A stretch of DNA of 64,000 bases from positions 3,248-67,247 of the forward strand of contig CAYOXD010000002.1 in NCBI GenBank assembly GCA_964407825.1. The letters are read 5' to 3'. The stretch is from an uncultured Desulfobacterales bacterium. GTDB taxonomy: Bacteria > Desulfobacterota > Desulfobacteria > Desulfobacterales > JAFDDL01. This document shows, piece after piece, positions 6,083-63,415 of the stretch (position 1 is its first letter; each line of letters begins with the position of its first letter). The notes under the pieces were generated by a model. It was given only the letters and a program-made list of their open reading frames with translations, did not search any database and had not been told where the DNA came from. Position numbers and translations under genes: made by a program.

Positions 6083-6089
6083 ACGCAAT

Positions 6090-7244: not shown

Positions 7245-7266
7245 AGGGAATTGCGAGCCGGTTGGA

Positions 7267-7524
7267 TCAGGCCGCGGCCTTCCGCTCTTCGATGAAGGCC
7301 GCCAGGCTGTTGATGGATTCAAGGGCGATCCGCCCTTCGTTCATATTTTTGATCTCGATACCGAAGTGCCGATTCACCTGGTAGACCATCTCCACGGAAT
7401 CGATGGAGTCAAGACCGAATTTGTCCCCGAAAAGGAGATCGTCATCCAGAATGTCATCCGGCTGGATATCGGGGAGCTGGAGGCCCTCCACGATCATTAC
7501 CTTCAACTTATGCTTCAATGTCAT
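7267..7524 (-). CDS. Acyl carrier protein (phosphopantetheine attachment site)
   Basis: Starting at the internal Met gives an 85-aa protein, MTLKHKLKVMIVEGL...FGLDSIDSVEMV, with a DSxxS-type Ser motif. It is convergent with the KASIII-like gene. Confidence 0.8.
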   Translation of the reverse strand: MTLKHKLKVMIVEGLQLPDIQPDDILDDDLLFGDKFGLDSIDSVEMVYQVNRHFGIEIKNMNEGRIALESINSLAAFIEERKAAA

Positions 7525-7828
7525 ATGTTTAACAGTCCGATTTCGAAGGGTTTTATAAACGTTACTGCCTCTGGGCCCCCCTCGGCATGACCCTGCGAAA
7601 GAACAGTCTCGTAATATACTGATATTCCCATTCAAGTTCAATGAAAAATCCACGGCTGTTCTTGGTGGATGGCATTGAGCACGCGGGCCCAGAGGCAATT
7701 GACAGCCTTCGGCTTTTGGGACAAAATATCTTTCCTGATCAATGGCAAGGCGGAAAGGATGGGAACGGCTCAGGTGGCCCCAGGGGGTTCCGCCTGAGCT
7801 CTGTAGCGAAGGGGGATAGGGAGAGGCA

Positions 7829-8593
7829 GTGGATCAAAGCGGTGCTCGGCAATCTTCCCTTGTGGTGGAAAACTTGACGAAAACTTACGCCGAAGCGAAG
7901 TCGCCCGCCATTTCCAACCTGACCTTTTCCATGGAACCGGGGGAAATTTTCGGCCTTCTAGGCCCCAACGGTGCAGGGAAAACCACGGCCATCTCCATTC
8001 TAAGCGCCGTATTGGGTGCCGATGAGGGCCGGGTAGTCATCTGCGGGGTGGACCTTTTCAAAAAGCCCCGGCAGGCAAAACGATGTTTCGGGCTAATTCC
8101 CCAGGACATCGCTCTCTACGGCCGGATGAGCGCCCGTGAGAACCTGGCCTATTTCGGCCGGCTTCAGGGGCTTGGCGGGAAGCACCTCAGGCAGCGCATT
8201 GACGAGAGCCTCGAGATGGTGGGGCTTGCAGGAAAGTCCGACCAGCCGGTAAAGACCTTCTCCGGCGGTATGAAACGTCGGTGCAATCTGGCAGTGGGGA
8301 TGCTGCATCAACCCCGTCTGCTGTTTCTGGATGAACCCACGGTGGGCATCGACGCCCAATCGCGCAACCTGATTCTGGAAAAGCTTTCCCTCCTCAGGGA
8401 GCAGGGTGTCAGCATGATCTACACGACCCACTACATGGAGGAGGCGGAATCCCTCTGCACCCGGGTCGGCATTTTGGACCTGGGCCGGATGATCGTCCAG
8501 GGCGCCCCCCGGGACCTGATTATGGCCCACCCCGGATGCGGGACGCTGGGGGAGCTTTTCCTTGAACTGACCGGGAAACACCTTCGGGACTGA
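7829..8593 (+). CDS. ABC-2 type transporter ATP-binding protein
   Basis: Walker A GPNGAGKTT, signature FSGGMKRR and Walker B LLFLDEPTVGID are present. A GTG start is preceded by GGGAGAGG. Confidence 0.85.
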   Translation: MDQSGARQSSLVVENLTKTYAEAKSPAISNLTFSMEPGEIFGLLGPNGAGKTTAISILSAVLGADEGRVVICGVDLFKKPRQAKRCFGLIPQDIALYGRMSARENLAYFGRLQGLGGKHLRQRIDESLEMVGLAGKSDQPVKTFSGGMKRRCNLAVGMLHQPRLLFLDEPTVGIDAQSRNLILEKLSLLREQGVSMIYTTHYMEEAESLCTRVGILDLGRMIVQGAPRDLIMAHPGCGTLGELFLELTGKHLRD

Positions 8594-8594
8594 T

Positions 8595-9923
8595 ATGAGG
8601 GCATTGGCGGCCGCCATATTAAAGGAACTTCTTCTGCTCAGGCGGGATCGGACCGGCCTGCTGGTGCTGTTTTTGATGCCGGCGGTGCTGGTGGTGGTCA
8701 TCTCCCTGGTGCAGAACAACGTATTGAAGACCACCGGCGAGACCGGCATCCAGTTGCTCCTCATCGACAACGACGGCAAGGCATTGGGCCGCATCATCGA
8801 ATCGCGCATCCGGAAAACCGGTGCCATCGAAATCGTACGGACCGTCAACGGAAAGCCCATCGATGAGACATCCGCCAGGGCGCTTCTGTCAAAGGGGCGA
8901 TACGAGGTCTGCATGGTGATTCCCCGAGGCTTTACCGATGCGGTGACCCGCCGGGCGGGGGAACAGATAAGGGCGTCCCTGGCCATCGATACCGAAGCCG
9001 GGGCGGCAGCGCAGAAGCCGCCCCATGTGGTCCTTTACTTCGATCCCATGGTGCGTGGGGCTTTTCGATCCGCCATGGAAAATGCCTTGGAGCGGGTCCT
9101 TTTGACCATGGAACTTCGCATCAAGGCCCGGGTGATCACCCGCCTGCTCAAAGAAAAAATAGGCGCCCCCCCCCTGTCGTCCTTCGGTCCCGAGCCATCG
9201 ATGCCATCTGGAGACGGGGTCTCCGGCATATCCGATGCCTGGGGGAAACAGCGCCTCATGGATGTCCAAAGCCTGAACGCCGCACCGGGGCAGGCGCTCA
9301 AGCTTCCCACGGCGGTTCAGCAAAATGTGCCGGCATGGGCACTTTTCGGGATGTTCTTTATCGTGATGCCGCTGGGGGGCGCCATCATCCGGGAAAGGCG
9401 GGACGGCACCTATGGTCGTCTCCTGACCATGCCCGTTTCACCGGCCGTCCTGCTTCTGGGGAAGGTGCTGGCCTATGTCCTGGTGTGCCTGGCGCAATTT
9501 TTCCTCATCCTGCTGGTGGGAAGGTTTGTGCTGCCCCTGCTCGGCACATCGGTGCTCCACATGGGCTCGGCTCCCCTGGCGGTGCTGGCGGTGGTGGTTT
9601 GCGCGGCCCTGAGCGCCTGCGCCTATGCCATCCTGCTGGGCACGGTGTGCACCAGCTATGAGCAGGTGTCCATGTTCGGTCCCGTGTCCGTGGTCATCGC
9701 GGCCGCCCTCGGGGGGATCATGGTTCCCGTCTACGTCATGCCGAGGGTGATGCAGGAGATCAGTCGCTACTCCCCCCTCGCCTGGGGGCTAAATGCCCTC
9801 ACCGACCTTTTCGCCCGGGGGGCGGGGATAGGCCAAGTGTTGCCCGATATTTTCTATCTCCTTGGCTTTGCGTCCGCCGCCATGATCGCCTGCTGGATGA
9901 TCTCCCTTTTCTCAAAACGCTGA
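8595..9923 (+). CDS. ABC-2 family transporter permease
   Basis: It starts 2 nt after the ATPase stop. It has one N-terminal TM segment, a long extracytoplasmic loop and a C-terminal cluster of hydrophobic helices. Confidence 0.75.
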   Translation: MRALAAAILKELLLLRRDRTGLLVLFLMPAVLVVVISLVQNNVLKTTGETGIQLLLIDNDGKALGRIIESRIRKTGAIEIVRTVNGKPIDETSARALLSKGRYEVCMVIPRGFTDAVTRRAGEQIRASLAIDTEAGAAAQKPPHVVLYFDPMVRGAFRSAMENALERVLLTMELRIKARVITRLLKEKIGAPPLSSFGPEPSMPSGDGVSGISDAWGKQRLMDVQSLNAAPGQALKLPTAVQQNVPAWALFGMFFIVMPLGGAIIRERRDGTYGRLLTMPVSPAVLLLGKVLAYVLVCLAQFFLILLVGRFVLPLLGTSVLHMGSAPLAVLAVVVCAALSACAYAILLGTVCTSYEQVSMFGPVSVVIAAALGGIMVPVYVMPRVMQEISRYSPLAWGLNALTDLFARGAGIGQVLPDIFYLLGFASAAMIACWMISLFSKR

Positions 9924-15896: not shown

Positions 15897-17660
15897 TCAG
15901 GGGCCGGGGGGGTTCAGGGTGTCGCCAAACTGGTGAAAAAGGGCCTGGAGAATGTCCTTGGTGGTTTTTTCCAGCAGGACATCCTTCATGAAGCGCCTGG
16001 CATCATCGGCCCTCATGGAGCGAATCATGTGTTTGACCGCGGGAATGGATTTGGGATTCATGCTCAGCGCATCGAAACCCAGTCCCAGCAGAATCGGAAT
16101 ATGAATCGGGTCTCCGGCCATCTCCCCGCAGATGGATACCCGGATGCCTTTTTTCTTACCCACCTCCTTGACATGCTTCAGCATCCGCAGGATGGCCGGG
16201 TGCAGTGGCTGGTACAGGTGCGCCACCTCCTTGTTGTTTCGATCGATGGCCAGGGCATACTGGACCAGATCGTTGGTCCCGATGCTGAAAAAATCCACCT
16301 CATCGGCCATGGCATCGGCCATCATCACCGCGGAGGGGACCTCGATCATGATGCCGATCTCGATATTTGGATCATAGGGCTGATGCAATTTGTCAAGCTC
16401 TTGGGACAACTGTCGGATCAATTTCTTGACGGCGACGATTTCCTCATAGCTCGATATCATGGGCAGGAGGATGCGTACCTTGCCGAAGGCCGACGCACGG
16501 AGGATCGCCCGGAGCTGCGTCCTGAAAATATCCTGCTTCAAGAGGCAGTACCGGATGGCTCGCAATCCGAGGGCCGGATTTTTCTCATCCGATTCCGCAT
16601 CGTTTGAAATGGCCTTGTCGCCGTTGATGTCTAAGGTTCTGATGGTGACGGGCCTGGGGGCCAGGGCCTCCACCACCTCCCTGTAGCTGCTGAACAGCTC
16701 GCGCTCATTGGGAAACCCGGATCGCTGCAGATACTGGAATTCGGTCCGGTACAACCCAATGCCGTCACTGCCGTATTTGAGCGCCGTCTGGGTTTCCTCC
16801 GGCAGTTCGATGTTGCTCATGACAGCCAGCTGAACGCCGTCAAGGGTCTGGGCAACCAGATGGCTGTCTCGGATCAGCGCCTTCTGGCGTTCCTCATAGA
16901 GGCTCTTGCGCTCTTCGAAGTCCACCAGCGTGTTTTCCGTCGGGTGGACGATGACCAGGCCGCTGGTGCCGTCAACAATGATCAGATCGTCATTGCGAAT
17001 GGTCCGGGTGGCGGTTGCCAATCCCAGCACCGCCGGAATGCTCAGGGTACGGGCGATAATGCTCGTGTGGCTGGTTTTGCCGCCGCGGTTTGTGACGAAC
17101 CCCTTGATCTTCTTTAGATTGATCTGGCTGGTTTCCGCGGGGGAAAGGTCCGATGCCACGAGGATGACCCGCGTGTCGATTTTCCTGAGGTTTACCTCCT
17201 GGGCTCCGGTCAGGTTGCGCATGATGATATCGGCCACATGACCGATGTCGTCGGCCCGTTCCTTGAGGTACATGTCCTGCATCCCGTGGAACATGGCCTT
17301 GGCATGGGAAACGGCCTTTCTGAAAGCCCATTCCGCGTTGACCTTTTCCTTCTCGATGGTTTCCAGGGTCGACCCGTAGAGCATCTTGTCCTTCAGAAGG
17401 AGCAGGTGGGTTTCCAGCACGTAGGAGTGGCGCTGCATCTCATCGGGGGTCTTGTCGATGATGGCCCTGAGCTCATCGATGGCGGATTTCACGGCGCCCT
17501 TGAAGCGCTTGATCTCCTTTTTGACATGTTGGTCATCGATGTAGTATTTTTCGACGACATCCACGCCCTCCTTGTCGACAATATATGCCTTGCCGATGCT
17601 GATGCCTGGGGATCCCGGAATACCTTCCAGCCGTATTTCAGAGGGGCTCTCTTCAATCAT
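15897..17660 (-). CDS. ptsI: Phosphoenolpyruvate-protein phosphotransferase (PTS enzyme I)
   Basis: The active-site His region GGKTSHTSIIARTLSIPAV and the C-terminal PEP-utilising domain motifs (FFSIGTNDLVQY, CGEMAGDP) are present. Confidence 0.9.
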   Translation of the reverse strand: MIEESPSEIRLEGIPGSPGISIGKAYIVDKEGVDVVEKYYIDDQHVKKEIKRFKGAVKSAIDELRAIIDKTPDEMQRHSYVLETHLLLLKDKMLYGSTLETIEKEKVNAEWAFRKAVSHAKAMFHGMQDMYLKERADDIGHVADIIMRNLTGAQEVNLRKIDTRVILVASDLSPAETSQINLKKIKGFVTNRGGKTSHTSIIARTLSIPAVLGLATATRTIRNDDLIIVDGTSGLVIVHPTENTLVDFEERKSLYEERQKALIRDSHLVAQTLDGVQLAVMSNIELPEETQTALKYGSDGIGLYRTEFQYLQRSGFPNERELFSSYREVVEALAPRPVTIRTLDINGDKAISNDAESDEKNPALGLRAIRYCLLKQDIFRTQLRAILRASAFGKVRILLPMISSYEEIVAVKKLIRQLSQELDKLHQPYDPNIEIGIMIEVPSAVMMADAMADEVDFFSIGTNDLVQYALAIDRNNKEVAHLYQPLHPAILRMLKHVKEVGKKKGIRVSICGEMAGDPIHIPILLGLGFDALSMNPKSIPAVKHMIRSMRADDARRFMKDVLLEKTTKDILQALFHQFGDTLNPPGP

Positions 17661-17912
17661 TGGAATTAGTCATTCTCCAACTATTACGATACGTTAAATA
17701 CTATACTGGTATCAGCAAGAACCGGATTTGTCAATCGGATTTAAAGACCGCCTTTCATTAGAGGTGCCGTTCCCCTGGCAGGGGCGCCCACAGAGGCTTG
17801 CAATGGTTGCCCGTTCTGCTATGGTTGATACCGGATAGGCCCGTAAGGGGCCGAAACCCGGAACCGTTTTCATGCCACTGCAAAGACCACTGCAAAGACG
17901 ACCGGTCATTCT

Positions 17913-18401
17913 ATGGAGAATCGTCCCCAGAGAAGTGATGGACAGCCGCCAAGGGGAAAGTGCATCCTCTGGATCCTGATGATCCTGCTGCTGCCGGCCT
18001 GTGCCCATCTGTCCAAGGGCGCCGCCCCGATCGACGGGTCGCCTTCGATTGCACTGAGGTTGATGGCGTTCTATCAGGGACCTCTGGATCACTTGAGGGC
18101 GGTACGCGGCGGGGAATGCCCCATGGCGCCCACCTGTTCCGAATATTGCCGCCAGGCCTTTGAAAAACATGGTTTCCTCATGGGCTGGCTCATGAGCGTC
18201 GACCGGCTGTTGCGCTGTGGCCGCGACGAGCTGCGGATCTCCCCCCATGTCTTTATCAACGGGGAGCAAAAGACATACGATCCCCTCGACGCCAATGACT
18301 TCTGGTGGGCCCCCTCTCCGTTAGAAAAGCGTTACGCCGGTATAGGTCTCAGGGGTGATGTCCCGCAGCTCCTCCTTGACGGCCGCAGAGACCTCCAATG
18401 A
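17913..18401 (+). CDS. YidD-domain (DUF37) protein with a lipoprotein-like N-terminus
   Basis: Contains the YidD signature ECPMAPTCSEYCRQAFEKHGFLMGWLMSVDRLLRCG and an N-terminal LLLPAC lipobox-like segment. Its 3' end overlaps purB convergently by 81 nt. Confidence 0.55.
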   Translation: MENRPQRSDGQPPRGKCILWILMILLLPACAHLSKGAAPIDGSPSIALRLMAFYQGPLDHLRAVRGGECPMAPTCSEYCRQAFEKHGFLMGWLMSVDRLLRCGRDELRISPHVFINGEQKTYDPLDANDFWWAPSPLEKRYAGIGLRGDVPQLLLDGRRDLQ

Positions 18402-19673
18402 ATCGATGAATTCGCGCAGGACCTCTGGGCCGATCTCGGCATGGGTCCGGGTCAGGCCCTTGAGTGCCTCGTAAGGATTGGCGTATCCCTCCCGCCGCAG
18501 GACCGTCTGGATCGCTTCGGCCACCACCGCCCAGTTGCTGCGGAGATCCCCCCGTATCTTTTCCTCGTTGAGCATCAGCTTGTCGAGCCCCCTGAGCAGG
18601 GATTTCAGGGCGATGAGCAGGTGGGCGAGGGGAACGCCGATGTTGCGGCCAACGGTGGAATCCGTCAGGTCCCGCTGGAGCCTGGAGATGGGGAGCTTTT
18701 CCGCCAGATGCCCCAACAGGGCGTTGGAAAGCCCCAGGTTCCCCTCCGAATTTTCAAAATCGATGGGATTCACCTTGTGCGGCATGGCAGAGGAGCCCAC
18801 CTCCGCTGCCGCAATTTTTTGACGGAAATAGTTCAGGGAAATATAGGTCCACAGATCCCTATCGAGATCGATGAGGATCGTGTTGATCCGGCTGACGGCA
18901 TGGCAGAAGGCAGCCAGGTGGTCGTAAGGTTCGATCTGGGTCGTCACCCGGGAGCGGAAAAGCCCCAGGGTCCCGTTCACGAAGTCCTCGGCAAAGGAGA
19001 CCCAGTCAATGCCCGGATAGGCCACGTGGTGAGCATTGAAGTTGCCGGTGGCACCGCCGAATTTGGCGGCAAAGGGAATGGCCTCCAGCAGGGCGATCTG
19101 ACCCCGGAGCCGATCCACGAACACGTAGATTTCCTTTCCCAGCCGCGTGGGCGAGGCGGGTTGCCCATGGGTCCGAGCGAGCATGGGCACGTCGCGCCAC
19201 TGCTCGGCCCGGGCCGCGAGGACCTCCGTGAGCTCCTGAAGCACAGGGCCCAGCACCTGGCGCCAGGCGTCCCTCAGGGCCAGGGGCATGGCCGTGTTGT
19301 TGATGTCCTGGGAGGTAAGCCCGAAATGAATGAATTCCTTATGCCGGGACAGCCCCAGGGCATCGAATTTTTCCTTCAGAAAATACTCCACCGCCTTCAC
19401 ATCATGATTGGTGGTTCTCTCAATGGCCTTGACCCGCTGCGCATCCTCCAGCGTAAATCCGGTGACGATGCGCCTAAGGCCGTTCAGTGCCCCCGGATCC
19501 ACCTCCGAGAGCTGGGGCAGGGGAATCCGGCACAGAGCGATGAAATAGGCGACCTCCACCTGAACCCGGTATCGGATCAGGGCGCTTTCGGAAAAATAGG
19601 GAGCAAGGGGCGCGGTGGCGCGCCCGTATCGGCCGTCCACTGGGGACACGGCCGTAAGGGGGGAAAGGGTCAT
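18321..19673 (-). CDS. purB: Adenylosuccinate lyase
   Basis: The N-terminus LTAVSPVDGRYG and the fumarate-lyase signature GSSAMPHKVNP are present, at about 450 aa. Confidence 0.9.
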   Translation of the reverse strand: MTLSPLTAVSPVDGRYGRATAPLAPYFSESALIRYRVQVEVAYFIALCRIPLPQLSEVDPGALNGLRRIVTGFTLEDAQRVKAIERTTNHDVKAVEYFLKEKFDALGLSRHKEFIHFGLTSQDINNTAMPLALRDAWRQVLGPVLQELTEVLAARAEQWRDVPMLARTHGQPASPTRLGKEIYVFVDRLRGQIALLEAIPFAAKFGGATGNFNAHHVAYPGIDWVSFAEDFVNGTLGLFRSRVTTQIEPYDHLAAFCHAVSRINTILIDLDRDLWTYISLNYFRQKIAAAEVGSSAMPHKVNPIDFENSEGNLGLSNALLGHLAEKLPISRLQRDLTDSTVGRNIGVPLAHLLIALKSLLRGLDKLMLNEEKIRGDLRSNWAVVAEAIQTVLRREGYANPYEALKGLTRTHAEIGPEVLREFIDSLEVSAAVKEELRDITPETYTGVTLF

Positions 19674-19872
19674 GTGTGCAACCTCCCTTGGACCCTAGAT
19701 CGGGAACACGGCAGCTACGTGTTCACATCATAAAAAGGTCGTTGAATTCAAACAGGTTAACTTGAAATACAGCATCCGTTCCATAAGGAGTTTCGAACAC
19801 CGTCGGTTGGGACGTCTGAACCTTGTCTCGACGCCAATATAGGAAACGGACCGGTCGGCGTCAAGCGGATCC

Positions 19873-20049
19873 TTAGGGCTCGCTGTCCTTGGCCGTGTAG
19901 CCGGAGCACTCCTGGGCCGGCGGGCAGTCCGTCCCGCCGCAGTCGCACCCGCACCCGCAGCCACCCGAGGCGGTAAGCTTTTTCCGGAAGGTCAGGGCCA
20001 GATAGACCACGGCGGCGCCGACAATGAGAAGAACGATCAGGGTTTCCAT
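19873..20049 (-). CDS. FeoB-associated Cys-rich small membrane protein (58 aa; below the ORF-track cutoff)
   Basis: My own translation is METLIVLLIVGAAVVYLALTFRKKLTASGGCGCGCDCGGTDCPPAQECSGYTAKDSEP. That gives one TM helix and a GCGCGC-type Cys tail. It lies 48 nt downstream of feoB. Confidence 0.7.
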   Translation of the reverse strand: METLIVLLIVGAAVVYLALTFRKKLTASGGCGCGCDCGGTDCPPAQECSGYTAKDSEP

Positions 20050-20097
20050 GGATACCTCCTACGAAATTGACATCGCACCCGCTCCCCGTCGCGCCTC

Positions 20098-22308
20098 TCA
20101 ATAGCCCAGGGCGGAACCGACCTGGAAGACCGTCACGGACAGGATAAATGCGAAACTGGTGTTGAAGACGACGGAGAAAAGCGCCCATTTCCAGGAGCCC
20201 GCCTCCTTGGCGATGCAGACCACTGAGGCGAAACAAGGCGCATAGAAAAGTACAAAGAGAATCAGGCTCAGGGCCACCAGGGGCCGCCAGTTGGGAGCAT
20301 GCGCCAGTCGGCTCGACAGGGATTCGGGTTGCTCAGGATCGGTCTGCCCCATGGAGTAGGCCGTTCCCAGCGTCGCAACGATGACCTCCTTGGCGGCAAA
20401 GCCCCCCACCAGGGCGATGTCCGTCTGCCAGTTGAACCCTGCCAGCCGGCTCACCACCTCGAGGGAAGTGCCGATCCGGCCGGCGATGGAATGCCTCAGG
20501 GCGCTTTGGGCCTCTTTGGCGTCGATGGCCTTGAGACGTACTTTGAGCTGCCTTGCCGCTGGGGACAGATCAGCGGCCCGTTTGGTATCAAGCTCAGAGA
20601 GGACCTGGGGAGGCGCCTGGTCCCGAAGGGCCTGGCGCGCGGCGTCAAAGGCCCTGGTCTGGGAGGCCGGAAGACCCGGAAAGCTCATCATGGCCCAGAG
20701 GAGAATCGATATGGCCAGGATAATGGTACCGGCCTTTCGAATATACTGCCAGGTCCGCTCGCAGGTGTGGATGACGAGTCCCTTGAAGGTCGGCAAGCGG
20801 TAGGGGGGCAGTTCCATGACAAAGGGCGTGGAGGCACCCCGGATCACCGTAACTCTGAGGAGCTTGGCCACCAGAAGGGCGAATATCCAGGCGACGACGG
20901 TGATCATGAACATGAAAAGGGTCCTGTTCTGCTTGAAGAAGGCCGCTATCAGGAGGGCGAATACGGGCAGCTTCGCGCCGCAGTTCATGAAGGGCACCGT
21001 CAGCAGGGTGGCGAGCCTTTCCCGGTGCGATCTCAAGGTCCGTGAGGCCATGATGCCCGGCACGGCACATCCGCCGGCAATGCCGCCGGAGAGGATAAAG
21101 GGCATCACGGAGCTGCCGTGCAGACCGAAGATGCGAAATACCCGATCCAGCATGAAGGCCACCCGGGCCAGGTAACCCGTATCCTCCAGAAGGGAGATGC
21201 CGAAAAACATAAACAGGATCAGGGGGACAAAGCCCATGACACCGCCCACCCCATCGATGAGGCCTGAGATGACGAGGGATTTCACAGGTCCGTCCGGAAG
21301 CAGCAGGTCGGCCCGGCCGCCGAGCCACTCGAAGAGCCGCCCGCACCAATCCACCGGTGTCTGGCTGTAGACAAAGGTGAACTGGTACAGGGCCAGGATC
21401 ACCCCTGCCATGATCAAGGGCCCGGCCAGCCGGTGCGTGACCACCCGATCGATCCGGTCGGAAACGTAGAGCCGATCCCGGTCGTGGAGATGCGTGAGGA
21501 CGCCCTGTTTGAGAATGGACTTGATGTACCCGTAACGGTGATCTGCCACCATGGCCTCGGGGTAGGTATGCAGCGTCGCCTCCAGATGATCGGCGAGGCG
21601 CTCGACGCGTCGTTCCAGCGTCTGGGAAAACGCCGGGTCCCTGAGCCGTCCCTGTTCGAGAATCTGCTCGTCGCTTTCAATGTACTTCAGCGCTGCCCAG
21701 CGGGCCGGGTAGACGTCGGTGAGAAAGCCGTTCTCCTGGATTTGCCCGGTTAATTCCTCCAGGAGGCGGTCCACGTCATCGCCGTAGCTGATCAGCAGGG
21801 GAGGGGACCCCGTGCCGTTCCCGGCGACCTTCAGGGCCTCTTCCATCAATGTTTCCTTGCCCTGTCCGTTTCGTGCCACCGTGGGAATAACGGGCGTTCC
21901 CATCAGCTCGGCCAGGCGCCTCTCATCGATGGAGATGCCCCTGGCCCTGGCCACATCCATCATGTTGAGGGCCATGCACACCGGAATGCCCAGTTCCAGA
22001 AACTGGACCGTCAGATAGAGATTCCGCTCGAGGTTGGAAGCGTCCACGATATTGATGACCGCCGGCGGCTTCTCGTTGATCAGGAAGTCCCGGGTCACCA
22101 CCTCCTCGAGGGAGTAGGCCGTAAGGGAATAGGTGCCCGGAAGATCCACGACGCGCGCCTGGGTTCGACCGCGCCGGTAAAGGCCCTCCTTTTTCTCGAC
22201 CGTGACGCCAGGATAATTCCCGACATGCTGACGCGCGCCTGTCAACGCGTTGAAGAGGGTCGTTTTCCCCGCATTGGGATTGCCCGCAAGGGCAATGGTG
22301 GCTCTCAT
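20098..22308 (-). CDS. feoB: Ferrous iron transporter FeoB
   Basis: An N-terminal G domain (GNPNAGKTTLFNALTG, DLPGTYSL) is followed by a polytopic membrane domain, 736 aa in total. Confidence 0.92.
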   Translation of the reverse strand: MRATIALAGNPNAGKTTLFNALTGARQHVGNYPGVTVEKKEGLYRRGRTQARVVDLPGTYSLTAYSLEEVVTRDFLINEKPPAVINIVDASNLERNLYLTVQFLELGIPVCMALNMMDVARARGISIDERRLAELMGTPVIPTVARNGQGKETLMEEALKVAGNGTGSPPLLISYGDDVDRLLEELTGQIQENGFLTDVYPARWAALKYIESDEQILEQGRLRDPAFSQTLERRVERLADHLEATLHTYPEAMVADHRYGYIKSILKQGVLTHLHDRDRLYVSDRIDRVVTHRLAGPLIMAGVILALYQFTFVYSQTPVDWCGRLFEWLGGRADLLLPDGPVKSLVISGLIDGVGGVMGFVPLILFMFFGISLLEDTGYLARVAFMLDRVFRIFGLHGSSVMPFILSGGIAGGCAVPGIMASRTLRSHRERLATLLTVPFMNCGAKLPVFALLIAAFFKQNRTLFMFMITVVAWIFALLVAKLLRVTVIRGASTPFVMELPPYRLPTFKGLVIHTCERTWQYIRKAGTIILAISILLWAMMSFPGLPASQTRAFDAARQALRDQAPPQVLSELDTKRAADLSPAARQLKVRLKAIDAKEAQSALRHSIAGRIGTSLEVVSRLAGFNWQTDIALVGGFAAKEVIVATLGTAYSMGQTDPEQPESLSSRLAHAPNWRPLVALSLILFVLFYAPCFASVVCIAKEAGSWKWALFSVVFNTSFAFILSVTVFQVGSALGY

Positions 22309-57028: not shown

Positions 57029-57517
57029 CTATCCCGGCAGGCTCAGCCGTTGGTGCGCCTTTCCCAGGACGCCTTGATAGTACCCCAGGATGTAGTCCAA
57101 ATAGACGATTTGGAGTTTAACAGCAAAGATCCCCCGATCAGCGTAAGCCAGAAGAGCGGCGTCCTTGGCCAGGGGAAGCCCGTCGAGAAATCCGTTGTCG
57201 AGACAGCGCTTGATCTTTCTGGACAGAGCATGGGTACGGAAGTGATCGCGCCCACCGGTTTCCCAGATGTCGTACAGGTGACACAGCAGACACACGGCGG
57301 CACCCTTGCGCAGCAGATCCGGGTCCAGGCCTATCCGGTCCCCGAGGTTCCGTGGCATTTCGCACCGAAGATACTTGAATGCATCGAATTCATTTAAAAA
57401 TAAGCTGCCGCCAAATCCGCCGTAGGTCGTAACGGCCCTATTGTACAGGTTCAGAATGATGCGGGCCGCGTGCATCGCCTCATGAAAGTTTTCTTCGGTA
57501 ATGTGATGGGTTTTCAT
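57029..57517 (-). CDS. Hypothetical protein (162 aa)
   Basis: A clean ORF in a lower-GC stretch. No motif recognised. Confidence 0.4.
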   Translation of the reverse strand: MKTHHITEENFHEAMHAARIILNLYNRAVTTYGGFGGSLFLNEFDAFKYLRCEMPRNLGDRIGLDPDLLRKGAAVCLLCHLYDIWETGGRDHFRTHALSRKIKRCLDNGFLDGLPLAKDAALLAYADRGIFAVKLQIVYLDYILGYYQGVLGKAHQRLSLPG

Positions 57518-57731
57518 TTGCCTCTTCTATCTGTCCGGGGCAGATAATTTAACGTAGCGGGTTTGGATCTGATAAGGGGAATAAGCAAGATACATGCCTC
57601 ATTGAAGAATTCGCGCGATTTCACGAATTCGTCAATGGCGACAGGGGAATGCGGCACCGCTGTCCCATGGACAATGATCAGGCTGTGCCGCAGACTGTTA
57701 CATAAAAGCTACACCTGATGTATACATTTGA

Positions 57732-58418
57732 TTACAGGATAGTCGTGCCGACGGCTGGATCTTTCTCTCCCTGCAGAATACCCAGCATGGCCTTGGCCAG
57801 CAGGCGATTCCTGTGGTGAGGGAGATAGCGTCTGTCCACGCGTTTTCGCTCCGGGTCGAAGCAGTTGACAAAGGCCCGGCGAATAGGGCTGCCATAAACA
57901 TTGACCATCGCTATGGGGAGGTCGCCGGGATTGCCGGTTCTATGGATACCCTCATTCAGGGGATGGGTTTCATCCGTTTCGCCGGGGAGCAGGAGGCGGT
58001 GGCGAGGTTCGCCGAGCCGGGCGATTCCCGCCTTGGAACCGTCATCCAGGCGCTCATATGTCACGATGTCGAGGGGGCCGAACAAGGTTCCGATAAGCCC
58101 CCATGAGCTGTGATCGTGAATGGGTGTATACTCCCCAGGGGCAAACAGAAACAGGCGCAGGGAAAAGCGACGGCCACGGTCCAGATACAGCAGCACCTCG
58201 CAATCGAAGAGCGCCGGTCTGGAAAGATCCGGATAGCGCTCTGCGCGGGACATTCGACCGATTATATCCACAAAAAGGGCCTCGTCCGCCAGCAGCCCGG
58301 GCAGGGCTTCGCGGATAAAGTCCATTCTGGCCTGCTTTCCCTTCAGTTGATCCATCACCGAGGACCAGGCGCGGCACGCGTCCATGAGTTTCGAGGCAGT
58401 TGATGTGTTGGACCCCAT
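57732..58418 (-). CDS. Cupin-fold protein resembling the cysteine dioxygenase type I family
   Basis: YTPIHDHSSWGLIG and a later HPLNEGIHR give a His-rich two-motif cupin pattern, as in CDO/3-mercaptopropionate dioxygenase-like proteins. Confidence 0.55.
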   Translation of the reverse strand: MGSNTSTASKLMDACRAWSSVMDQLKGKQARMDFIREALPGLLADEALFVDIIGRMSRAERYPDLSRPALFDCEVLLYLDRGRRFSLRLFLFAPGEYTPIHDHSSWGLIGTLFGPLDIVTYERLDDGSKAGIARLGEPRHRLLLPGETDETHPLNEGIHRTGNPGDLPIAMVNVYGSPIRRAFVNCFDPERKRVDRRYLPHHRNRLLAKAMLGILQGEKDPAVGTTIL

Positions 58419-58438
58419 GGCAGCTCCTTTGGTCTTTT

Positions 58439-60370
58439 TTACTTGGACATTTCCAGCCTCACGTACTGCTCGTAATAGGCGGCGCCAGAGCCCATATCCG
58501 TGCAGACGGCGTCAATGAGTTGATTGACCCCACCCCCCAGTCCCATCCAGTCCCCCCGGCGGTAGAGCACCACCTGGGGATGGAGATCCGCCAACGACAC
58601 CGGTTGTACCCGCAGTCGGCCAAGGGGGGAAACGAGCCAGACCGGACCGTCATCGTCGATTTCCCGCCATGCCGGGCATTCAGGCGACAACCATACAGTG
58701 GGAAACTTCGGATGGCTCTCGGGCAGGAGTTGTGAGTGCATGGCATCCCGACGCACAAGGCTCAGCAGCCGCAGGGGGAACCCCGGCGGCGGGGCCGGTT
58801 CCTCATGCAGCACCAGGGGAAGGGCGTAGCGTCCATCGGCATGGTCGAAAACCAGTCCCTCGTAGGCAACCGCCGGCCGGCTGGCCCGGACCCATCCCCT
58901 TTGCCGCAACCGGTTCAGATCCGTGTCCAATACAGGTGCCTCCAGGGCCCGGGCAAGGCAGCTTTCGGCATCCGGCAGCATCACGGGCGGGTCCAGCCTT
59001 CGGCCGATTTCCGATACGATCCAGTGATCGCCCCTCGCCTCGGGCGGTGGATCCACCACCTTCGCCGCATACAGGACGAATTCATGGAGATAGGAACCGA
59101 CGATGTCCTCCTGTTCCAGCATCAGGGTGCAGGGGAGCACCAGGTCCGCTGCCCGGGCGGTATCGGTCATGAAGGCATCCACCACCACCTTGAAGTCAAC
59201 CGACTGGAAAAATTGTCGCACACCGCGGCTGTCCGGCGCCTGGTTGACGATGTTGGTGCCGTTGACCCAAATCATTCGGACAGGCGGTCGGGTCCTGTCA
59301 GCCCCGTCCTGCGCTATCATCGGCTTTCGGAGGGTGTGCTGCGAACCGCTTGCCCCGGGATCCAGCCAGGAGAGGTCCAGATTCCGGAAGGCATGGTGAT
59401 GAAAGTAGCTGCCGCCGCCGGGCCGTCCCACGTTACCGGAACAGAAGGCAAGGGCATTGATAAAACGCACATTTTCGCCGCCGTAGCGATACCGTTGCAG
59501 GCCGGCGCCCACCAGTGTGGCTGTGGGACCGGGGGCCGCATAGTACTCGGAGAGGGTTTCGATATCGCTGGACGACACCCCGGATAAGTCGCAAAGCCGA
59601 TCCTCGCCGTATGCGCCGATGGTCTGGACAAAGCTCTTCACGTGCCGGGCCCTTTCGAGCAAGGATGCCGGAACCTGTCCAGCGGAAAACAGCCGTTTGG
59701 TTACCGCGGCCGCCAGAAAGCGATCCGTACCCGGCCGGATGCGGATCGTATCGTCGGAAAGCGACCGATTGAAATCCCCCCCGGGGGAGATGCTCAGCAC
59801 CCGGGCGCCCCGGCGGCGCGCCCGGCGTATCAGCAGGGCCGTATGGACCGAACTCCGGAGGGGGTCCTTTCCCCAGTTGACGATTCTGTCGCTCTCCAAC
59901 AGAAGCTGGATATCGGAATTGCACCGGGAGCCGAAATCCTTGATATAGGCCATGTAGCCGGCCGCATCGCACAGGGATCCATGGGTACGGGAGCTGCCAA
60001 GTTTTCGAAAAAAGAGGGTAGGGGTCTGCCGCAGGACCCCCTTGCCGCCTTGGCCATGGAGGTGCAAAATGGCGCCCGGGGTTTTGCGAAGTGCCTGTAT
60101 CTTCTCCGCGCAGAGGGCCAGGGCCTCCTCCCAGCAGATAGCCTTCCAATTTTTTCCCCTGCGGATCATGGGGGTTTGGATCCGCGCGGGACTCTGCAGC
60201 CGTTGCAGATGGCTATTGATTTTGTTACAGGCGAATCCGGCGGTTATCGGATGATCCGGCGCTCCCTTCAGCCGCGGATTTCCAGATCTGTCCAACTCCA
60301 CCAGCAGGGCGCAAGAATCCGGACAATCCATGGTACAGGCCGTGTAAGATGCATTCTGGTGCCCATCCAT
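58439..60370 (-). CDS. Molybdopterin (bis-MGD) oxidoreductase family protein, apparently cytoplasmic
   Basis: The N-terminal Fe-S motif is CTMDCPDSC...GFACNK. MopB-like core motifs (THGSLCDAAG, ISPGGD) and a C-terminal molybdopterin-binding barrel are present. No twin-arginine signal is seen. The internal Met at 60370 is preceded by GAGGGAG. Confidence 0.75.
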   Translation of the reverse strand: MDGHQNASYTACTMDCPDSCALLVELDRSGNPRLKGAPDHPITAGFACNKINSHLQRLQSPARIQTPMIRRGKNWKAICWEEALALCAEKIQALRKTPGAILHLHGQGGKGVLRQTPTLFFRKLGSSRTHGSLCDAAGYMAYIKDFGSRCNSDIQLLLESDRIVNWGKDPLRSSVHTALLIRRARRRGARVLSISPGGDFNRSLSDDTIRIRPGTDRFLAAAVTKRLFSAGQVPASLLERARHVKSFVQTIGAYGEDRLCDLSGVSSSDIETLSEYYAAPGPTATLVGAGLQRYRYGGENVRFINALAFCSGNVGRPGGGSYFHHHAFRNLDLSWLDPGASGSQHTLRKPMIAQDGADRTRPPVRMIWVNGTNIVNQAPDSRGVRQFFQSVDFKVVVDAFMTDTARAADLVLPCTLMLEQEDIVGSYLHEFVLYAAKVVDPPPEARGDHWIVSEIGRRLDPPVMLPDAESCLARALEAPVLDTDLNRLRQRGWVRASRPAVAYEGLVFDHADGRYALPLVLHEEPAPPPGFPLRLLSLVRRDAMHSQLLPESHPKFPTVWLSPECPAWREIDDDGPVWLVSPLGRLRVQPVSLADLHPQVVLYRRGDWMGLGGGVNQLIDAVCTDMGSGAAYYEQYVRLEMSK

Positions 60371-60556
60371 CAAGGACGCTCCCTCTCTCTGTGTCGGGCT
60401 TTTGGGATCCACTCGCGTTTCGGCCACAAAGCCGCCCTCAGCTCCATGCCCTCTACCTATAGAAATACGATGTTCGACGGGTATTTGCAAAATGTATTGA
60501 AAATCCTCCCTGGAAAATATAAAAAAGTCTTTTTGCATAGGAAGAGGAAAGGGGAG

Positions 60557-60823
60557 ATGGAGAAACTACTGGATGAGTTGAAGCACAAGGTCGTCGAAAC
60601 CCTCAATCTGGGCGATATCAAACCCGAGGACATCGACGGGGACGAACAGCTGGTGGGAGGAAGGCTGGGAATCGATTCCATCGATATCCTGGAACTGGTG
60701 ATGATGATTGAAAAGACCTATGGGCTCAAAATCGACAATAAGGAAATGGGCGCGAAGGTTTTTGCCAATATGAGAGCCATGGCCGGATATATTCAGGAAA
60801 ATGTTCCGGAGCTTTCCCCTTGA
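60557..60823 (+). CDS. Acyl carrier protein
   Basis: An 88-aa protein with LGIDSIDILELV as the phosphopantetheine Ser motif. The ATG is preceded by GAGGAAAGGGGAG, and the stop overlaps the start of the KS gene. Confidence 0.8.
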   Translation: MEKLLDELKHKVVETLNLGDIKPEDIDGDEQLVGGRLGIDSIDILELVMMIEKTYGLKIDNKEMGAKVFANMRAMAGYIQENVPELSP

Positions 60824-63003
60824 CTGAAAGGCGGGTCATCATCGCCGGCATGGGCGCCCTCACCCCTGCCGGCGCCGGTGTGGAGGCTCTGGTTCGCTGG
60901 ATGCACCGGGGGGACCGGGCGATTGCAGATCCCACGGTTTTCGCCGTTGCACCGGAGAATCGAATGCCGGTCGGTGAGGTCCCCCGGTGGGACGGACTCG
61001 GCGGCGCCTATCCCCGAACCCATCAGCTCGCGCTGGCTGCAGCCCTGGAGGCAATGTCGGGAACCTCACAACCGCCCGATGCGATAGTGATTGGCGTTAC
61101 CACCGGCGGGATTCTTACCACCGAGGAAAATTTCAAGGCGGACGTCAGCGACCCGACCGCCTACCGATATCATGGTGCGGGAACGGTCGCAGAGCTGATC
61201 GCAGAGCAGCTCTGCTGCAGGGGCGCCGCCATCACGGTGTCCAATGCCTGCTCTTCCGGTGCGGTTGCCATCAAGATCGCCCTCGACATGCTGCGCAGCG
61301 GCCTGGCCAGCCGGGTTTTGGCAGGAGGGGCGGACAGCCTCTGCCGGCTGACCTACTTCGGATTTAAATCACTCCAGTTGGTGGATCCAAAGGGAGCGCG
61401 GCCCTTTGATCTGGATCGCCAGGGAATGTCGGTGGGGGAGGGGGCCGCCATGCTCCTTCTGGAGCGGGACGTCGAGAACAGATCCGATAGGACAGCGGTG
61501 CTCGGCGGTGGACTTTCATGCGATGCTTTTCACCCCGCCAAACCCCATCCCGAAGGGCAGGGGGCCCTGGCCGCCATGAGGGCGGCTCTGAGGGATGCGG
61601 GCATTCCCCCGAAGGATATTGATTACATCAATCTGCACGGCACCGGTACGCAGGACAACGATCTTTCAGAGGCGAGGGCCGTTCGCAGGCTATTCGGCGA
61701 GCGCCTGCCGCCGCTTTCCTCCGTAAAGGGGGCTCTGGGTCATTCCCTGGCCGCAGCGGGAGCCATTGAAGCGCTCATTGGCGCCATCGCCATTTCCCAC
61801 GGCCTGATGCCTGCCAATACCGGCTGCACGGTGCCGGACCCGGAGCTGGGCTTAAGCCCCTTGCCGGCGCCGCAAAGGTCACCCACGGCCACGGTCCTTT
61901 CCAATTCCATCGGCTTTGGTGGCAACAATGCCGCCCTGGTGATCGGTAGAACCGCTGGCCGCACCCAAACCTCGAGCCCATCCAGCAAGCCCTTTACGGT
62001 GGCAGGCATAGCGTGCCTCACCGGGTACGGGAGTCTTGACAATACCCTTGCCCGCCTCGCCTCTGGTTCTGCAATCTCCCCCCCGGAACGCCTTTCGCTG
62101 GCGGATATTTCCGCCGCGCTTCCTGCTGCCCAGGTGCGGCGGCTCAAACGGCTGCCGCGCATGGCTTTGGCCCTTTCCAGCGCCGTTCGCCAGAATGCGG
62201 GGCTCGATTGCCCTCCTGAATCCGTCTTCTGGGGCACCGGGTGGGGGCCCCTCTCGGAAACCTATGACTTTTTAACGAAGCTCCAGGAATCCGATGAAAA
62301 ATTCACCAGCCCCACGGACTTCATCGGATCGGTACACAACGCGCCGGCAGGGCAGGTTGCCATGCTCCTTGGCGCCGCCGGTGCCAACGTCACCCTGACC
62401 GGCGGAGACTATTCCTTCGAGCAGGCACTGCTGAGCGCCCAGGTCCTTGCTCCAGAATCCGATGCCCCTGTACTCGTAATCGGCGCCGACGAGTTTCATG
62501 AAACGTTTTCTCCCCTGCTGGATCCCTCGGTGGTCGATGCAGATACCGCCTCCGACGGCGGAGGGGCCCTTTACCTGACCCGTTCGGTAAACAATCGAGA
62601 GACAACAAACTGGATTCGTTTGGAATATTTTGCAACCCTGGGGGATGACCCTGCCGCCATCTCCTCGCTGGTGGAAGCCCTCAACGCAACAGGCCCCCTC
62701 GCGGAACGATTTTGCGCTGTCATGGCAGGCATTCCGGCCGGCTACCGGAAGCAGGGCGAGAGCCAACTCCGCGCGTTTCTTTCCCTATCGGGGGTCACCA
62801 GCCCCGTCATCGATTATCGGGAACTTACCGGCGAATTCGCTTCGGCCAGTGCGGTGGCTGTATCCCTTGCCGCGGCATTTTGCCGCAACGGCGAAATCCC
62901 CGCCGGCTTCGCCGGCTGTTCCGGGCAAACCATTCCGTTGCACAACAAGGAAATTCTCGTCCTCGGACTCGGCAAATCCATCACAGCCGTCTGCCTGGGT
63001 TGA
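60820..63003 (+). CDS. Fused beta-ketoacyl synthase (KS, Cys-His-His) plus chain-length-factor-like KS-N domain
   Basis: The N-terminal half carries VSNACSSGAVAI, NLHGTGTQDND and KGALGHSLAAAG. The C-terminal half carries SPTDFIGSVHNAPAGQVAML and has no catalytic Cys at the equivalent position (TLTGGDYSFEQAL). The TTG start overlaps the ACP stop as TTGA. Confidence 0.85.
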   Translation: MTERRVIIAGMGALTPAGAGVEALVRWMHRGDRAIADPTVFAVAPENRMPVGEVPRWDGLGGAYPRTHQLALAAALEAMSGTSQPPDAIVIGVTTGGILTTEENFKADVSDPTAYRYHGAGTVAELIAEQLCCRGAAITVSNACSSGAVAIKIALDMLRSGLASRVLAGGADSLCRLTYFGFKSLQLVDPKGARPFDLDRQGMSVGEGAAMLLLERDVENRSDRTAVLGGGLSCDAFHPAKPHPEGQGALAAMRAALRDAGIPPKDIDYINLHGTGTQDNDLSEARAVRRLFGERLPPLSSVKGALGHSLAAAGAIEALIGAIAISHGLMPANTGCTVPDPELGLSPLPAPQRSPTATVLSNSIGFGGNNAALVIGRTAGRTQTSSPSSKPFTVAGIACLTGYGSLDNTLARLASGSAISPPERLSLADISAALPAAQVRRLKRLPRMALALSSAVRQNAGLDCPPESVFWGTGWGPLSETYDFLTKLQESDEKFTSPTDFIGSVHNAPAGQVAMLLGAAGANVTLTGGDYSFEQALLSAQVLAPESDAPVLVIGADEFHETFSPLLDPSVVDADTASDGGGALYLTRSVNNRETTNWIRLEYFATLGDDPAAISSLVEALNATGPLAERFCAVMAGIPAGYRKQGESQLRAFLSLSGVTSPVIDYRELTGEFASASAVAVSLAAAFCRNGEIPAGFAGCSGQTIPLHNKEILVLGLGKSITAVCLG

Positions 63004-63151
63004 TATGAATGTTTGACCAGAACTCAAATGCGCGGCTGGCGCGAATTTATGTATTCCCAGAACGTCTGATAATGTATATTATGTAAACTTTAAATAATGG
63101 CCATACGTCCCCGTCGGCTCCCCGATCCTACTCGGGGTTATCGAGGCCGTA

Positions 63152-63415
63152 TTATTTCTGGCTCTGAATAAATTCCCGGACCTTGGGCGGGATGAAGGTG
63201 TTGTCCAGCGGATAAGATTGCAGGAAAGAGGCCAGAAGCCTGTTTTTACGATGAATTGTCAGATGTTTGTCGATGATGAAGCGCTCCTGGCCCTTGACCT
63301 TGCAGTAGCCGCTGCGGACCTGAATGCCGCTGGTTTTCAGATTCTGTTCCGAGACGCTCACACCCATCCTGTCCAGAAGCTCTTTCAGATGCTCGTAAAG
63401 TTGATCCGCTTTCAT
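63152..63415 (-). CDS. Hypothetical small protein (87 aa)
   Basis: The internal Met is preceded by GGGGAGGGGA. No motif recognised. Confidence 0.35.
   Translation of the reverse strand: MKADQLYEHLKELLDRMGVSVSEQNLKTSGIQVRSGYCKVKGQERFIIDKHLTIHRKNRLLASFLQSYPLDNTFIPPKVREFIQSQK

Follow-up and report, generated by a model that had tools for sequence, protein, structure and literature searches.

A single-chain ketosynthase-chain-length factor with a dedicated acyl carrier protein in a Desulfobacterales genome and its probable partnership with a DarB-type module

The 64-kb stretch of an uncultured Desulfobacterales genome analyzed here in its entirety (hereinafter, the window; contig CAYOXD010000002.1, positions 3,248 to 67,247) encodes, close to its 3' end, an acyl carrier protein (ACP2) and a 727-amino-acid (aa) protein, KS-CLF, in which a ketosynthase (KS) half is followed by a KS-like half of the chain-length factor (CLF) type. 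The two genes are a real operon, and the KS-CLF fusion is a trait of its family, neither a rare nor a unique architecture. In the lineage of the window, this operon is separated from the remaining pathway genes yet kept under purifying selection, that is, it is not decaying. The pair is probably the condensing core (acyl carrier protein, ACP, plus single-chain KS-CLF) of a FASII-like (fatty acid synthase of type II) lipid or pigment pathway, detached and acting in trans with a second module of the same window (4784-9923), which encodes a B12-binding radical SAM enzyme (B12-rSAM), a DarB-type ketosynthase, another ACP and an exporter. The features of the operon are the following.

60370-60556, no strand: intergenic region between a molybdopterin oxidoreductase gene and ACP2, a probable divergent promoter from reading of the sequence
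60557-60823, forward strand: ACP2, a dedicated acyl carrier protein of 88 aa (PF00550, NF006617/PRK09184), with the phosphopantetheine Ser41 in the motif GIDSID
60820-60823, forward strand: TTGA start/stop overlap, the TTG start of KS-CLF lying on the TGA stop of ACP2
60820-63003, forward strand: KS-CLF, single chain of 727 aa (PF00109, PF02801, PF13723)
60820-61974, forward strand: N-half of KS-CLF, residues 1-385, predicted elongating ketosynthase (C144, H273, K303, H308)
61981-63003, forward strand: C-half of KS-CLF, residues 388-727, predicted long CLF-type KS-like domain (PF13723; Asp530 at the Cys position)

ACP2 matches PF00550 with an E-value of 8.5e-8 in a Pfam profile search and scores 71.5 bits, just over the cutoff of 70, against the NCBIfam model NF006617/PRK09184; its closest match among the related loci is the ACP encoded immediately 5' of KS-CLF in locus L010 (69% identity). 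The overlap of this gene with the 727-aa open reading frame (ORF), which the initial annotation of the window had pointed out, is confirmed: the TGA stop at 60821-60823 shares bases with the TTG start at 60820-60822 of the ORF that ends at 63003, and a GGAG is located 8 nt 5' of this start. An NTGA overlap with the adjoining ACP gene is possible in 32 of the 45 related loci that have an adjacent ACP, and tight coupling is therefore a family trait too; ACP2 and KS-CLF appear to be translationally coupled. An AG-rich ribosome-binding stretch, aggaaaggggag, lies right 5' of the ATG of ACP2. A simple sigma-70 scan found no promoter match in 60370-60556, promoter and terminator scanning gave nothing above shuffled expectation, and a weak hairpin at 63029-63043 is the sole element of the terminator scan 3' of the KS-CLF stop.

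Residues 67-335 of the N-half match PF00109 (E 1.5e-29) and PF02801 (E 3.5e-28). C144, in the motif SNACSSG (codon 61249-61251), H273 (codon 61636-61638) and H308 (codon 61741-61743), as well as K303, are invariant in an alignment of 16 homologs. Judging by its sequence, the N-half is an elongating β-ketoacyl-ACP synthase (KASI/II) of the thiolase superfamily, with a Cys-His-His triad and the Lys. The best matches among PDB sequences are 9s5h_B (5e-60), ApeO (6qsp_A, 8e-55) and Iga11 (6kxd_A, 1.3e-52), the first of which is probably the anammox amxFabF2/amxFabFmut heterodimer. A housekeeping FabF is ruled out because the score of 248.6 bits against the equivalog model TIGR03150 falls far below the cutoff of 493.75. 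The domain matches of ACP2 and KS-CLF far exceed chance.

The C-half is homologous to the N-half: when the profiles of both were aligned with hhalign, 301 columns were covered (prob 85%, E 7e-7). Its residues 432-561 match PF13723 (Ketoacyl-synt_2) with 57.5 bits, versus the gathering cutoff of 25 (E 2e-15), and the same domain is matched in all 16 aligned homologs. In the hhalign alignment, the position of the catalytic Cys is taken by Asp530, within the motif GGDYSFE that is invariant in the homolog alignment (codon 62407-62409), and that of the first His by Thr670, whereas no His of the C-half aligns with the second catalytic His. The segment GTGWGPLSET (472-481) was considered as a Cys-equivalent site and discarded, given that the profile alignment puts the Cys position at Asp530. 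In the CLF (KSβ) of aromatic polyketide synthases (PKSs), a conserved Gln replaces the active-site Cys of the KS; with the invariant Asp530 in place of this Gln, the C-half does not belong to the aromatic type II PKS group. Instead, among PDB sequences, it is closest to ApeC (6qsp_B, E 1.8e-5) and AbApeC (7f28_A, E 3.3e-4), with 9s5h_C also among the closest. [quoted passage not shown] Most likely, then, the C-half is a full-length ApeC-related (PF13723) KS-like domain without the catalytic Cys and His.

An AlphaFold2 model of KS-CLF, built from an input alignment of 16 sequences, has a mean pLDDT of 80 and a pTM of 0.89. Its best fold match in the PDB is the KS-CLF didomain of PfaC (6RIW), which it matches over the full length (E 2.3e-39; TM-score normalized to the query, TMq, 0.76), whereas single KS chains, namely, Iga11, the second-best fold match, and FabF, span one half of the model (TMq ~0.46). 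To our knowledge, 6RIW is the only solved single-chain KS-CLF. The best structural reading of the model is an intramolecular KS/CLF pseudo-heterodimer, as a prediction. Residues 175-192 (61342-61395), CRLTYFGFKSLQLVDPKG, are near-invariant in the family (C175, T178, G181, F182, L185, Q186) and, despite this conservation, are among the lowest-confidence parts of the model (pLDDT <50); they may form a mobile gating or interface loop. The initial annotation had read the protein as a complete elongating KS with a Cys-His-His triad followed by a CLF-type domain lacking the catalytic Cys, and had proposed annotation of the domains with profile models and prediction of the structure as checks. Both checks agree with this reading: PF00109, PF02801 and PF13723 are all matched, the overall predicted arrangement is that of the single-chain KS-CLF 6RIW, and the C-half is neither a duplicated active KS nor an unrelated domain, being homologous to KS with the catalytic residues gone.

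The same annotation contrasted the fusion with the normally separate KS and CLF proteins, which needs correcting insofar as the fusion is no oddity of the locus. A KS-CLF search of 5.8 billion proteins yielded, among the candidates scored, 2874 matches at E <= 1e-10. The best 120 matches are all 689-743 aa long, contain the same three Pfam domains and show 51-72% identity to the window protein; their sources are Desulfobacterales, other Thermodesulfobacteriota, Spirochaetota and unclassified 'Deltaproteobacteria', Desulfonema limicola included. Moreover, single-chain KS-CLF is already known structurally from PfaC. Homologs of ~720 aa number in the thousands, in Desulfobacterota, Spirochaetota and Myxococcota, and the proteins of the fused family are abundant in databases under generic names. 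The C-half alone, searched against 1.84 billion representatives at 50% identity, gave 2427 matches at E <= 1e-3, 651 at E <= 1e-10 and 100 at E <= 1e-30; fused proteins of 700-790 aa make up roughly half of the 100 best matches and are followed by stand-alone proteins of ~320-350 aa with ~30% identity. A literature search for PF13723/Ketoacyl-synt_2 found no papers, and we found no paper describing the fused KS-CLF form in aryl-polyene (APE)- or flexirubin-like clusters. In two contigs of Desulfobacterales metagenome-assembled genomes, the KS-CLF frame is broken (L056, 1519-3334, 364 + 343 aa) or shortened (L055, 10001-12141, 590 aa), which may be an assembly error or a genuine split.

The usual context of the family was read from 56 genome loci, in which flanking ORFs were clustered and then annotated. 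In most of these, the pair is embedded in a large cluster that is APE/flexirubin-like and 'ladderane-like'. Typically, an upstream and divergent block, encoding an ApeP-like dehydratase (DH), a short-chain dehydrogenase/reductase-type ketoreductase (KR), a LolA2-like protein, a 220-aa unknown protein and a B12-rSAM, is followed by ACP and KS-CLF and then by a downstream block encoding the TIGR04072 'rSAM_ladder_B12' enzyme, an ApeI/FabA-like DH, an ACP, two radical SAM enzymes (rSAMs), two KSs, a 4HBT thioesterase, a PS-DH protein and an AMP-ligase. Many loci additionally contain genes for a phytoene-desaturase-like protein, polysaccharide deacetylase, LpxL-like acyltransferase, family 2 glycosyltransferase or tyrosine/phenylalanine ammonia-lyase. 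In L016, from Desulforhopalus sp. IMCC35007, for example, the product of the gene 3' of KS-CLF scores 390.9 bits against TIGR04072 (cutoff 360). This usual cluster is the Desulfotalea psychrophila/anammox-like FASII cluster of Rattray et al. 2009, and the relatives' clusters with the TIGR04072 rSAM, further rSAMs and phytoene-desaturase-like genes match the description given there (PMC2649909); genome-mining tools call such Desulfobacterota clusters 'ladderane' (PMC9902471). The large clusters with KR and DH genes, named in the initial annotation as the normal place of KS and CLF, are the place of the pair in most of the relatives too, and not in the window.

An exact look-up of KS-CLF gave no record; for the context past the window end, we relied on two syntenic loci, L081 and L082, which contain the closest relatives of KS-CLF (71-72% identity) and orthologs of ACP2 with 92% identity. 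Upstream of the pair, both encode ArgB, an aminotransferase, DapF, FolK, transaldolase, PgsA and a molybdopterin oxidoreductase, and downstream, a small convergent gene is followed by genes for Bax1-I, YcaO-TPR, an HMA protein and a P-type ATPase. In L081 and L082, no KR, DH, LolA or rSAM gene lies in the 10 kb to each side of the pair, and a tblastn search with all conserved cluster families found no match of the KR, DH or enoylreductase type, nor of LolA, in the whole window. The absence of reductases and dehydratases beside the pair, noted at the outset, accordingly extends to the entire 64 kb, and the pair is not the edge of a standard aryl-polyene or fab cluster cut off by the window, given that only Bax1-I, YcaO-TPR and P-type ATPase genes follow in the syntenic loci. 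The gene set that characterizes APE and flexirubin clusters, namely, co-located KR, ApeI/ApeP DHs, AMP-ligase/ammonia-lyase, LolA-like protein, acyltransferase, glycosyltransferase and exporter, is found with most relatives and is missing from the window and its syntenic flanks. A match of cluster family c26 at 23.8-26.6 kb of the window was dismissed as domain-level similarity only because the members of this family are generic hybrid histidine kinases.

In a neighbor-joining tree, the window protein, L081 and L082 group as a clade with the full-cluster member L001 as its sister, and this clade branches within the members that reside in full clusters; therefore, the bare pair is a derived state of one lineage. 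The ratio of nonsynonymous to synonymous substitution rates (dN/dS) of KS-CLF relative to the syntenic orthologs is 0.21-0.24, both halves being alike, at dS ~0.9, and that of ACP2 is 0.04.

The candidate partner module is located at the other end of the window and consists of the following genes.

4784-6082, forward strand: B12-binding radical SAM enzyme, probable partner (PF02310, PF04055)
6090-7244, forward strand: StlD/DarB-family ketosynthase, probable partner (NF005293)
7267-7524, reverse strand: ACP1, 85 aa, motif GLDSID, probable partner (NF006617, 56 bits)
7829-9923, forward strand: DrrAB-type exporter, probable partner, consisting of an ABC ATPase (7829-8593) and an ABC-2 permease (8595-9923) (Pfam, NCBIfam)

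The ketosynthase of this module scores 524.5 bits against NF005293 (cutoff 450) and 443.5 bits, under the cutoff of 550, against the DarB model; the 'KASIII' of the initial annotation is thus a ketosynthase of the StlD/DarB family. Its orthologs (46-50% identity) are encoded beside KS-CLF in L016, L030, L035, L036 and L067, the last of these, from Mucilaginibacter, within a dar operon. The B12-rSAM is far under the cutoff of its nearest NCBIfam model, HpnR (172 bits versus 650), and likewise under that of TIGR04072 (51.9 bits versus 360), so that the 'ladderane-like' combination of TIGR04072 and further rSAMs beside KS genes, observed in relatives, is not found in the window; in all loci examined, its orthologs (50-68% identity) sit directly 5' of a gene for a DarB-like protein. 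ACP1 and ACP2 fall into separate orthologous groups, ACP2 into the KS-coupled type and ACP1 into the type that terminates dar operons, its best matches being the terminal ACPs of the Bacteroidota dar operons in L067 and L065 (48-49% identity). Orthologs of the exporter (40-49% identity) are found in dar operons or KS-CLF clusters in L031, L033, L036, L065, L067, L083-L086, L088 and L089.

The connection between the two modules comes from other genomes. In five loci, L016, L030, L035, L036 and L033, all from Desulfobulbales, a distance of 3-6 kb separates ACP-KS-CLF from orthologs of rSAM and DarB with 46-53% identity. Furthermore, in six of the seven long contigs chosen because they encode an rSAM 63-68% identical to that of the window (L083-L089; L083 is from the same genome as L031), rSAM-DarB is located within 6 kb of a KS/CLF pair. 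Four of the seven (L083, L084, L086, L089) contain a compact, co-directional cluster of ~15 kb (for instance, L083, 4966-19617) with B12-rSAM, DarB-like, ABC, ABC-2, aromatic ammonia-lyase, ACP(s) and the fused KS-CLF; these clusters begin with ACP, rSAM, rSAM and sometimes a CrtD-like gene, although in L089 no ACP was called before KS-CLF, and they include no KR, DH or LolA within 10 kb. In L085 and L088, rSAM-DarB adjoins split CLF, KS, ACP, DarH and DarG genes, whereas in L087 it stands alone, as in the window. The cooperation of the pair with the rSAM/KASIII module, suggested in the initial annotation, is thus the best-supported part of its interpretation; the support is gene-neighborhood evidence from relatives and not proof for the source genome, where the two modules are ~53 kb apart.

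How the two modules might work together can be outlined from the predicted proteins and established KS chemistry. ACP2 would be phosphopantetheinylated at Ser41. The N-half would load an acyl primer on Cys144 and decarboxylate malonyl-ACP2 via His273/His308, yielding β-ketoacyl-ACP2 or a short extended chain. The C-half would be catalytically inert and would pack on the N-half as a pseudo-heterodimer, forming the opposite wall of the tunnel for the acyl chain. The KS/CLF-like heterodimer of anammox bacteria primes itself through malonyl-ACP decarboxylation (bioRxiv 10.64898/2026.05.19.726425), and therefore, self-priming would be possible for the window KS-CLF also. What follows, including the trans partnership in the source genome, the substrates and the product, we infer from the gene content. 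There is no dedicated KR or DH, and the compact clusters likewise lack them; therefore, the β-ketoacyl (or minimally processed) chain on ACP2 would pass to the DarB-type enzyme. Enzymes of the DarB/StlD family form a cyclohexanedione from two thioesters, one β-ketoacyl and one α,β-unsaturated acyl. The window enzyme would accordingly condense the ACP2-borne chain with a second acyl thioester, possibly carried by ACP1, into a cyclohexanedione or resorcinol ring; the B12-rSAM would tailor the product, perhaps by methylating the ring or by oxidizing it without O2, and the ABC-2 system would export it to the envelope. A broader conjecture, to which we assign only a limited chance, is that this is a KR/DH-independent pathway of anaerobes in which a β-ketoacyl-ACP, possibly aryl-primed where an ammonia-lyase is present, is cyclized by the StlD/DarB enzyme and aromatized or C-methylated independently of O2 by the cobalamin rSAM, which would stand in for the gene 5' of darB in classical dar operons, giving a hitherto undescribed class of resorcinol or cyclohexanedione lipids or signals in sulfate reducers.

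Several points weigh against the proposed explanation. Housekeeping genes occupy the ~53 kb between the two modules in the window, so that no co-regulation is apparent. By tblastn, the window lacks the ammonia-lyase and both small rSAMs of the compact clusters. The structural model derives from 16 sequences only and has low confidence at residues 1-17, 36-56, 175-192 and 496-504. Finally, outside the syntenic clade, the window KS-CLF is closest (59% identity) to that of L001, which resides in a full KR/DH cluster, and is 48-53% identical to the KS-CLFs of the compact DarB clusters; therefore, the rest of a full cluster could sit elsewhere in the genome.

The main rival explanation, which we consider possible although rather unlikely, builds on this last point: the pair would make a highly reduced or polyene chain, as in the 'ladderane-like' and APE-like clusters, and other parts of the genome, outside the window, would encode the KR, DHs, LolA, rSAM_ladder_B12, extra KSs, thioesterase and AMP-ligase. 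The nesting of the window clade among full-cluster members fits this scenario, as does the precedent of a documented split of flexirubin loci in Chitinophaga pinensis, which has its flx cluster apart from its dar cluster (PMC3992019). However, the genes in question are all missing from the 64-kb window and, in L081 and L082, from the 10 kb flanking the pair on each side, and the compact clusters devoid of KR and DH demonstrate that KS-CLF can belong to such a gene set.

The remaining explanations appear much weaker. With KS, CLF and ACP, and no KR or DH nearby, the pair has the content of a textbook type II minimal PKS and, together with a housekeeping malonyl transferase, could in principle build, iteratively and without reduction, a poly-β-keto chain to be released in the form of a pyrone or an aromatic compound independently of DarB; the self-priming from malonyl-ACP of the related anammox KS/CLF-like heterodimer (bioRxiv 10.64898/2026.05.19.726425) would be in line with this. 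Nevertheless, such a self-sufficient system is highly improbable given the Asp at the Cys-equivalent position, in place of the Gln of aromatic-PKS CLFs, the highly reducing systems of the closest relatives (ApeO/ApeC, Iga11, the flexirubin pair) and the lack of an adjoining cyclase, aromatase or thioesterase. It is equally hard to view the pair as an evolutionary remnant without a current role, or as an extra FabF recruited to housekeeping fatty acid synthesis. Detachment from the usual partners would fit a remnant, but the dN/dS of 0.2 in both halves and 0.04 in the ACP at dS ~0.9, the retention of all catalytic and family-invariant residues and the operon structure conserved in three genomes do not, and the dedicated APE-type ACP speaks against housekeeping recruitment. 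A functional tie of the pair to the divergent genes at 57029-60538, for instance, in reductive or oxidative modification of the product, is very unlikely as well: the adjacency of the pair to these genes, with a common intergenic region, is a conserved feature of the window, L081 and L082, but the oxidoreductase is not found beside KS-CLF in any of the other 80 genome loci, and the three sharing genomes are close relatives, so this may be plain inherited synteny.

Comparison with characterized systems places the window protein as a fused form of the flexirubin/aryl-polyene ACP-KS-CLF triad, corresponding to the KS/CLF-like pairs of the 'ladderane-like' clusters. The resemblance to ApeO-ApeC (Xenorhabdus doucetiae, 6QSP; Acinetobacter baumannii, 7F28, PMC8358021) involves both halves, at the E-values given above, the same type of dedicated ACP (PRK09184) and the same KS model (PRK09185, against which the window protein reaches 312 bits, under the cutoff of 407); the window protein differs in combining KS and CLF in one polypeptide, with no APE tailoring or export genes adjoining. 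Proteobacterial APE clusters (L078, L080) encode a KS with a short CLF of ~265 aa. The flexirubin clusters of Bacteroidota (L059-L073), including the FlxN/FlxO region of Chitinophaga pinensis (PMC3992019), share with the window the order of ACP, KS (~400 aa) and long CLF (~350 aa), at identities of ~30-35% for the KS half and 25-36% for the CLF half, and are also associated with a DarB-type dialkylresorcinol module. However, the Bacteroidota genes are separate and are followed by deacetylase, LolA and DH genes, with a halogenase and an O-methyltransferase in addition, none of which is encoded in the window. A verrucomicrobial locus (L064) also encodes a fused KS-CLF.

The DarABC/StlD systems resemble the window module in that an StlD/DarB-family enzyme occurs together with an ACP and an ABC-2 exporter. 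The gene preceding darB in the classical dar operons (L036, L067) encodes an unannotated protein of ~300 aa, which may be DarA; in the window, this position directly 5' of darB is held by the B12-rSAM gene, and DarG, DarH and a counterpart of the ~300-aa gene are absent. The Ferruginibacter locus L065 contains, in its dar operon, after DarH-ABC-ABC2, an ACP-KS(395)-CLF(364) set (16906-21455, reverse strand) that is distinct from the one in its flx part; Bacteroidota can therefore hold two KS/CLF pairs per flexirubin locus. Orthology of the window KS-CLF to the KS/CLF of Bacteroidota dar operons was rejected because the CLF half resembles the CLF of the flx part (84-96 bits) more than that of the L065 dar operon (59 bits).

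The whole model of KS-CLF superposes on the didomain of PfaC, from polyunsaturated fatty acid synthases, at an identity of only 17%. PfaC, however, continues into DH domains and is part of a type I megasynthase, whereas the window protein is a free-standing type II enzyme with a discrete ACP, ends after the CLF half and has no pfa genes around it. The anammox amxFabF2/amxFabFmut pair (bioRxiv 10.64898/2026.05.19.726425) consists of two full-length subunits with Val or Thr at the inactive Cys position, in contrast to the fused window protein with its Asp, and the 'ladderane-like' clusters of Desulfotalea psychrophila (PMC2649909) include rSAM_ladder_B12, which the window lacks. Iga11-Iga12 (ishigamide, 6KXD) and the act KS/CLF (1TQY) follow the same logic of a KS with an inactive partner but are actinobacterial and made of separate subunits. 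In PigJ/RedX of prodiginine biosynthesis, one active and one inactive KS-like domain are likewise combined in one polypeptide, although PigJ has the opposite order, with its active KS at the C-terminus, and belongs to an unrelated pathway; of the 759 positions in the PigJ model, 481-725 are matched by the N-half with 81.6 bits, far under the cutoff of 900. Taken together, these comparisons suggest that KS-CLF would work like the ApeO/ApeC, FlxN/FlxO, Iga11/12 and amxFabF2/mut pairs, with the architecture of the PfaC didomain, while being an ortholog of none of them.

KS/CLF pairs set the chain length in type II polyketide and aryl-polyene systems, and this role has recently been extended to the anammox 'ladderane-cluster' systems. 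A natural single-chain KS-CLF with a full-size CLF would be handy for structural work and engineering because the stoichiometry is fixed and no co-expression is needed, and the gene set that its family marks is very widespread in Desulfobacterota, Spirochaetota and Myxococcota. The fusion alone would not surprise a specialist. Recurrently linked, KS-CLF, a DarB-type ketosynthase, a cobalamin rSAM and an ABC-2 exporter, without KR and DH, make up a small testable set of 5-10 genes, and testing it could reveal the product of these anaerobes.

The immediate neighbors of the operon are two further features.

57029-60538, reverse strand: molybdopterin oxidoreductase, a 228-aa protein with a weak PCO_ADO (cupin-like) match and a 162-aa protein without a family
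63152-63415, reverse strand: small convergent gene of ~87 aa, directly 3' of KS-CLF, 86 aa in L081 and L082

The molybdopterin oxidoreductase, divergent to ACP2, is cytoplasmic-looking and contains the Fe4S4 motif CTMDCPDSC. The 5' end of its ORF is probably over-extended by ~55 codons because the Pfam domains begin at residue 65 and the orthologs are 630-646 aa long; the arrangement at 57029-60538 recurs in L081 and L082, and no other KS-CLF locus has it. The small gene at 63152-63415 has no Pfam or NCBIfam match, and the 146-aa ORF listed there is probably over-extended. In L081 (13774-15549) and L082 (13481-15244), just past the position that corresponds to the window end, a YcaO domain fused to TPR repeats is encoded 3' of Bax1-I, followed by the HMA protein, the P-type ATPase and a SprA-related protein. 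At the opposite end of the window, a 248-aa protein (2269-3015, forward strand) shows weak matches, far under the respective cutoffs, to methanogenesis marker protein 11 (45 bits) and to the N-terminal region of TiaS (40 bits), which is unexpected for a bacterial, Desulfobacterota-like window.

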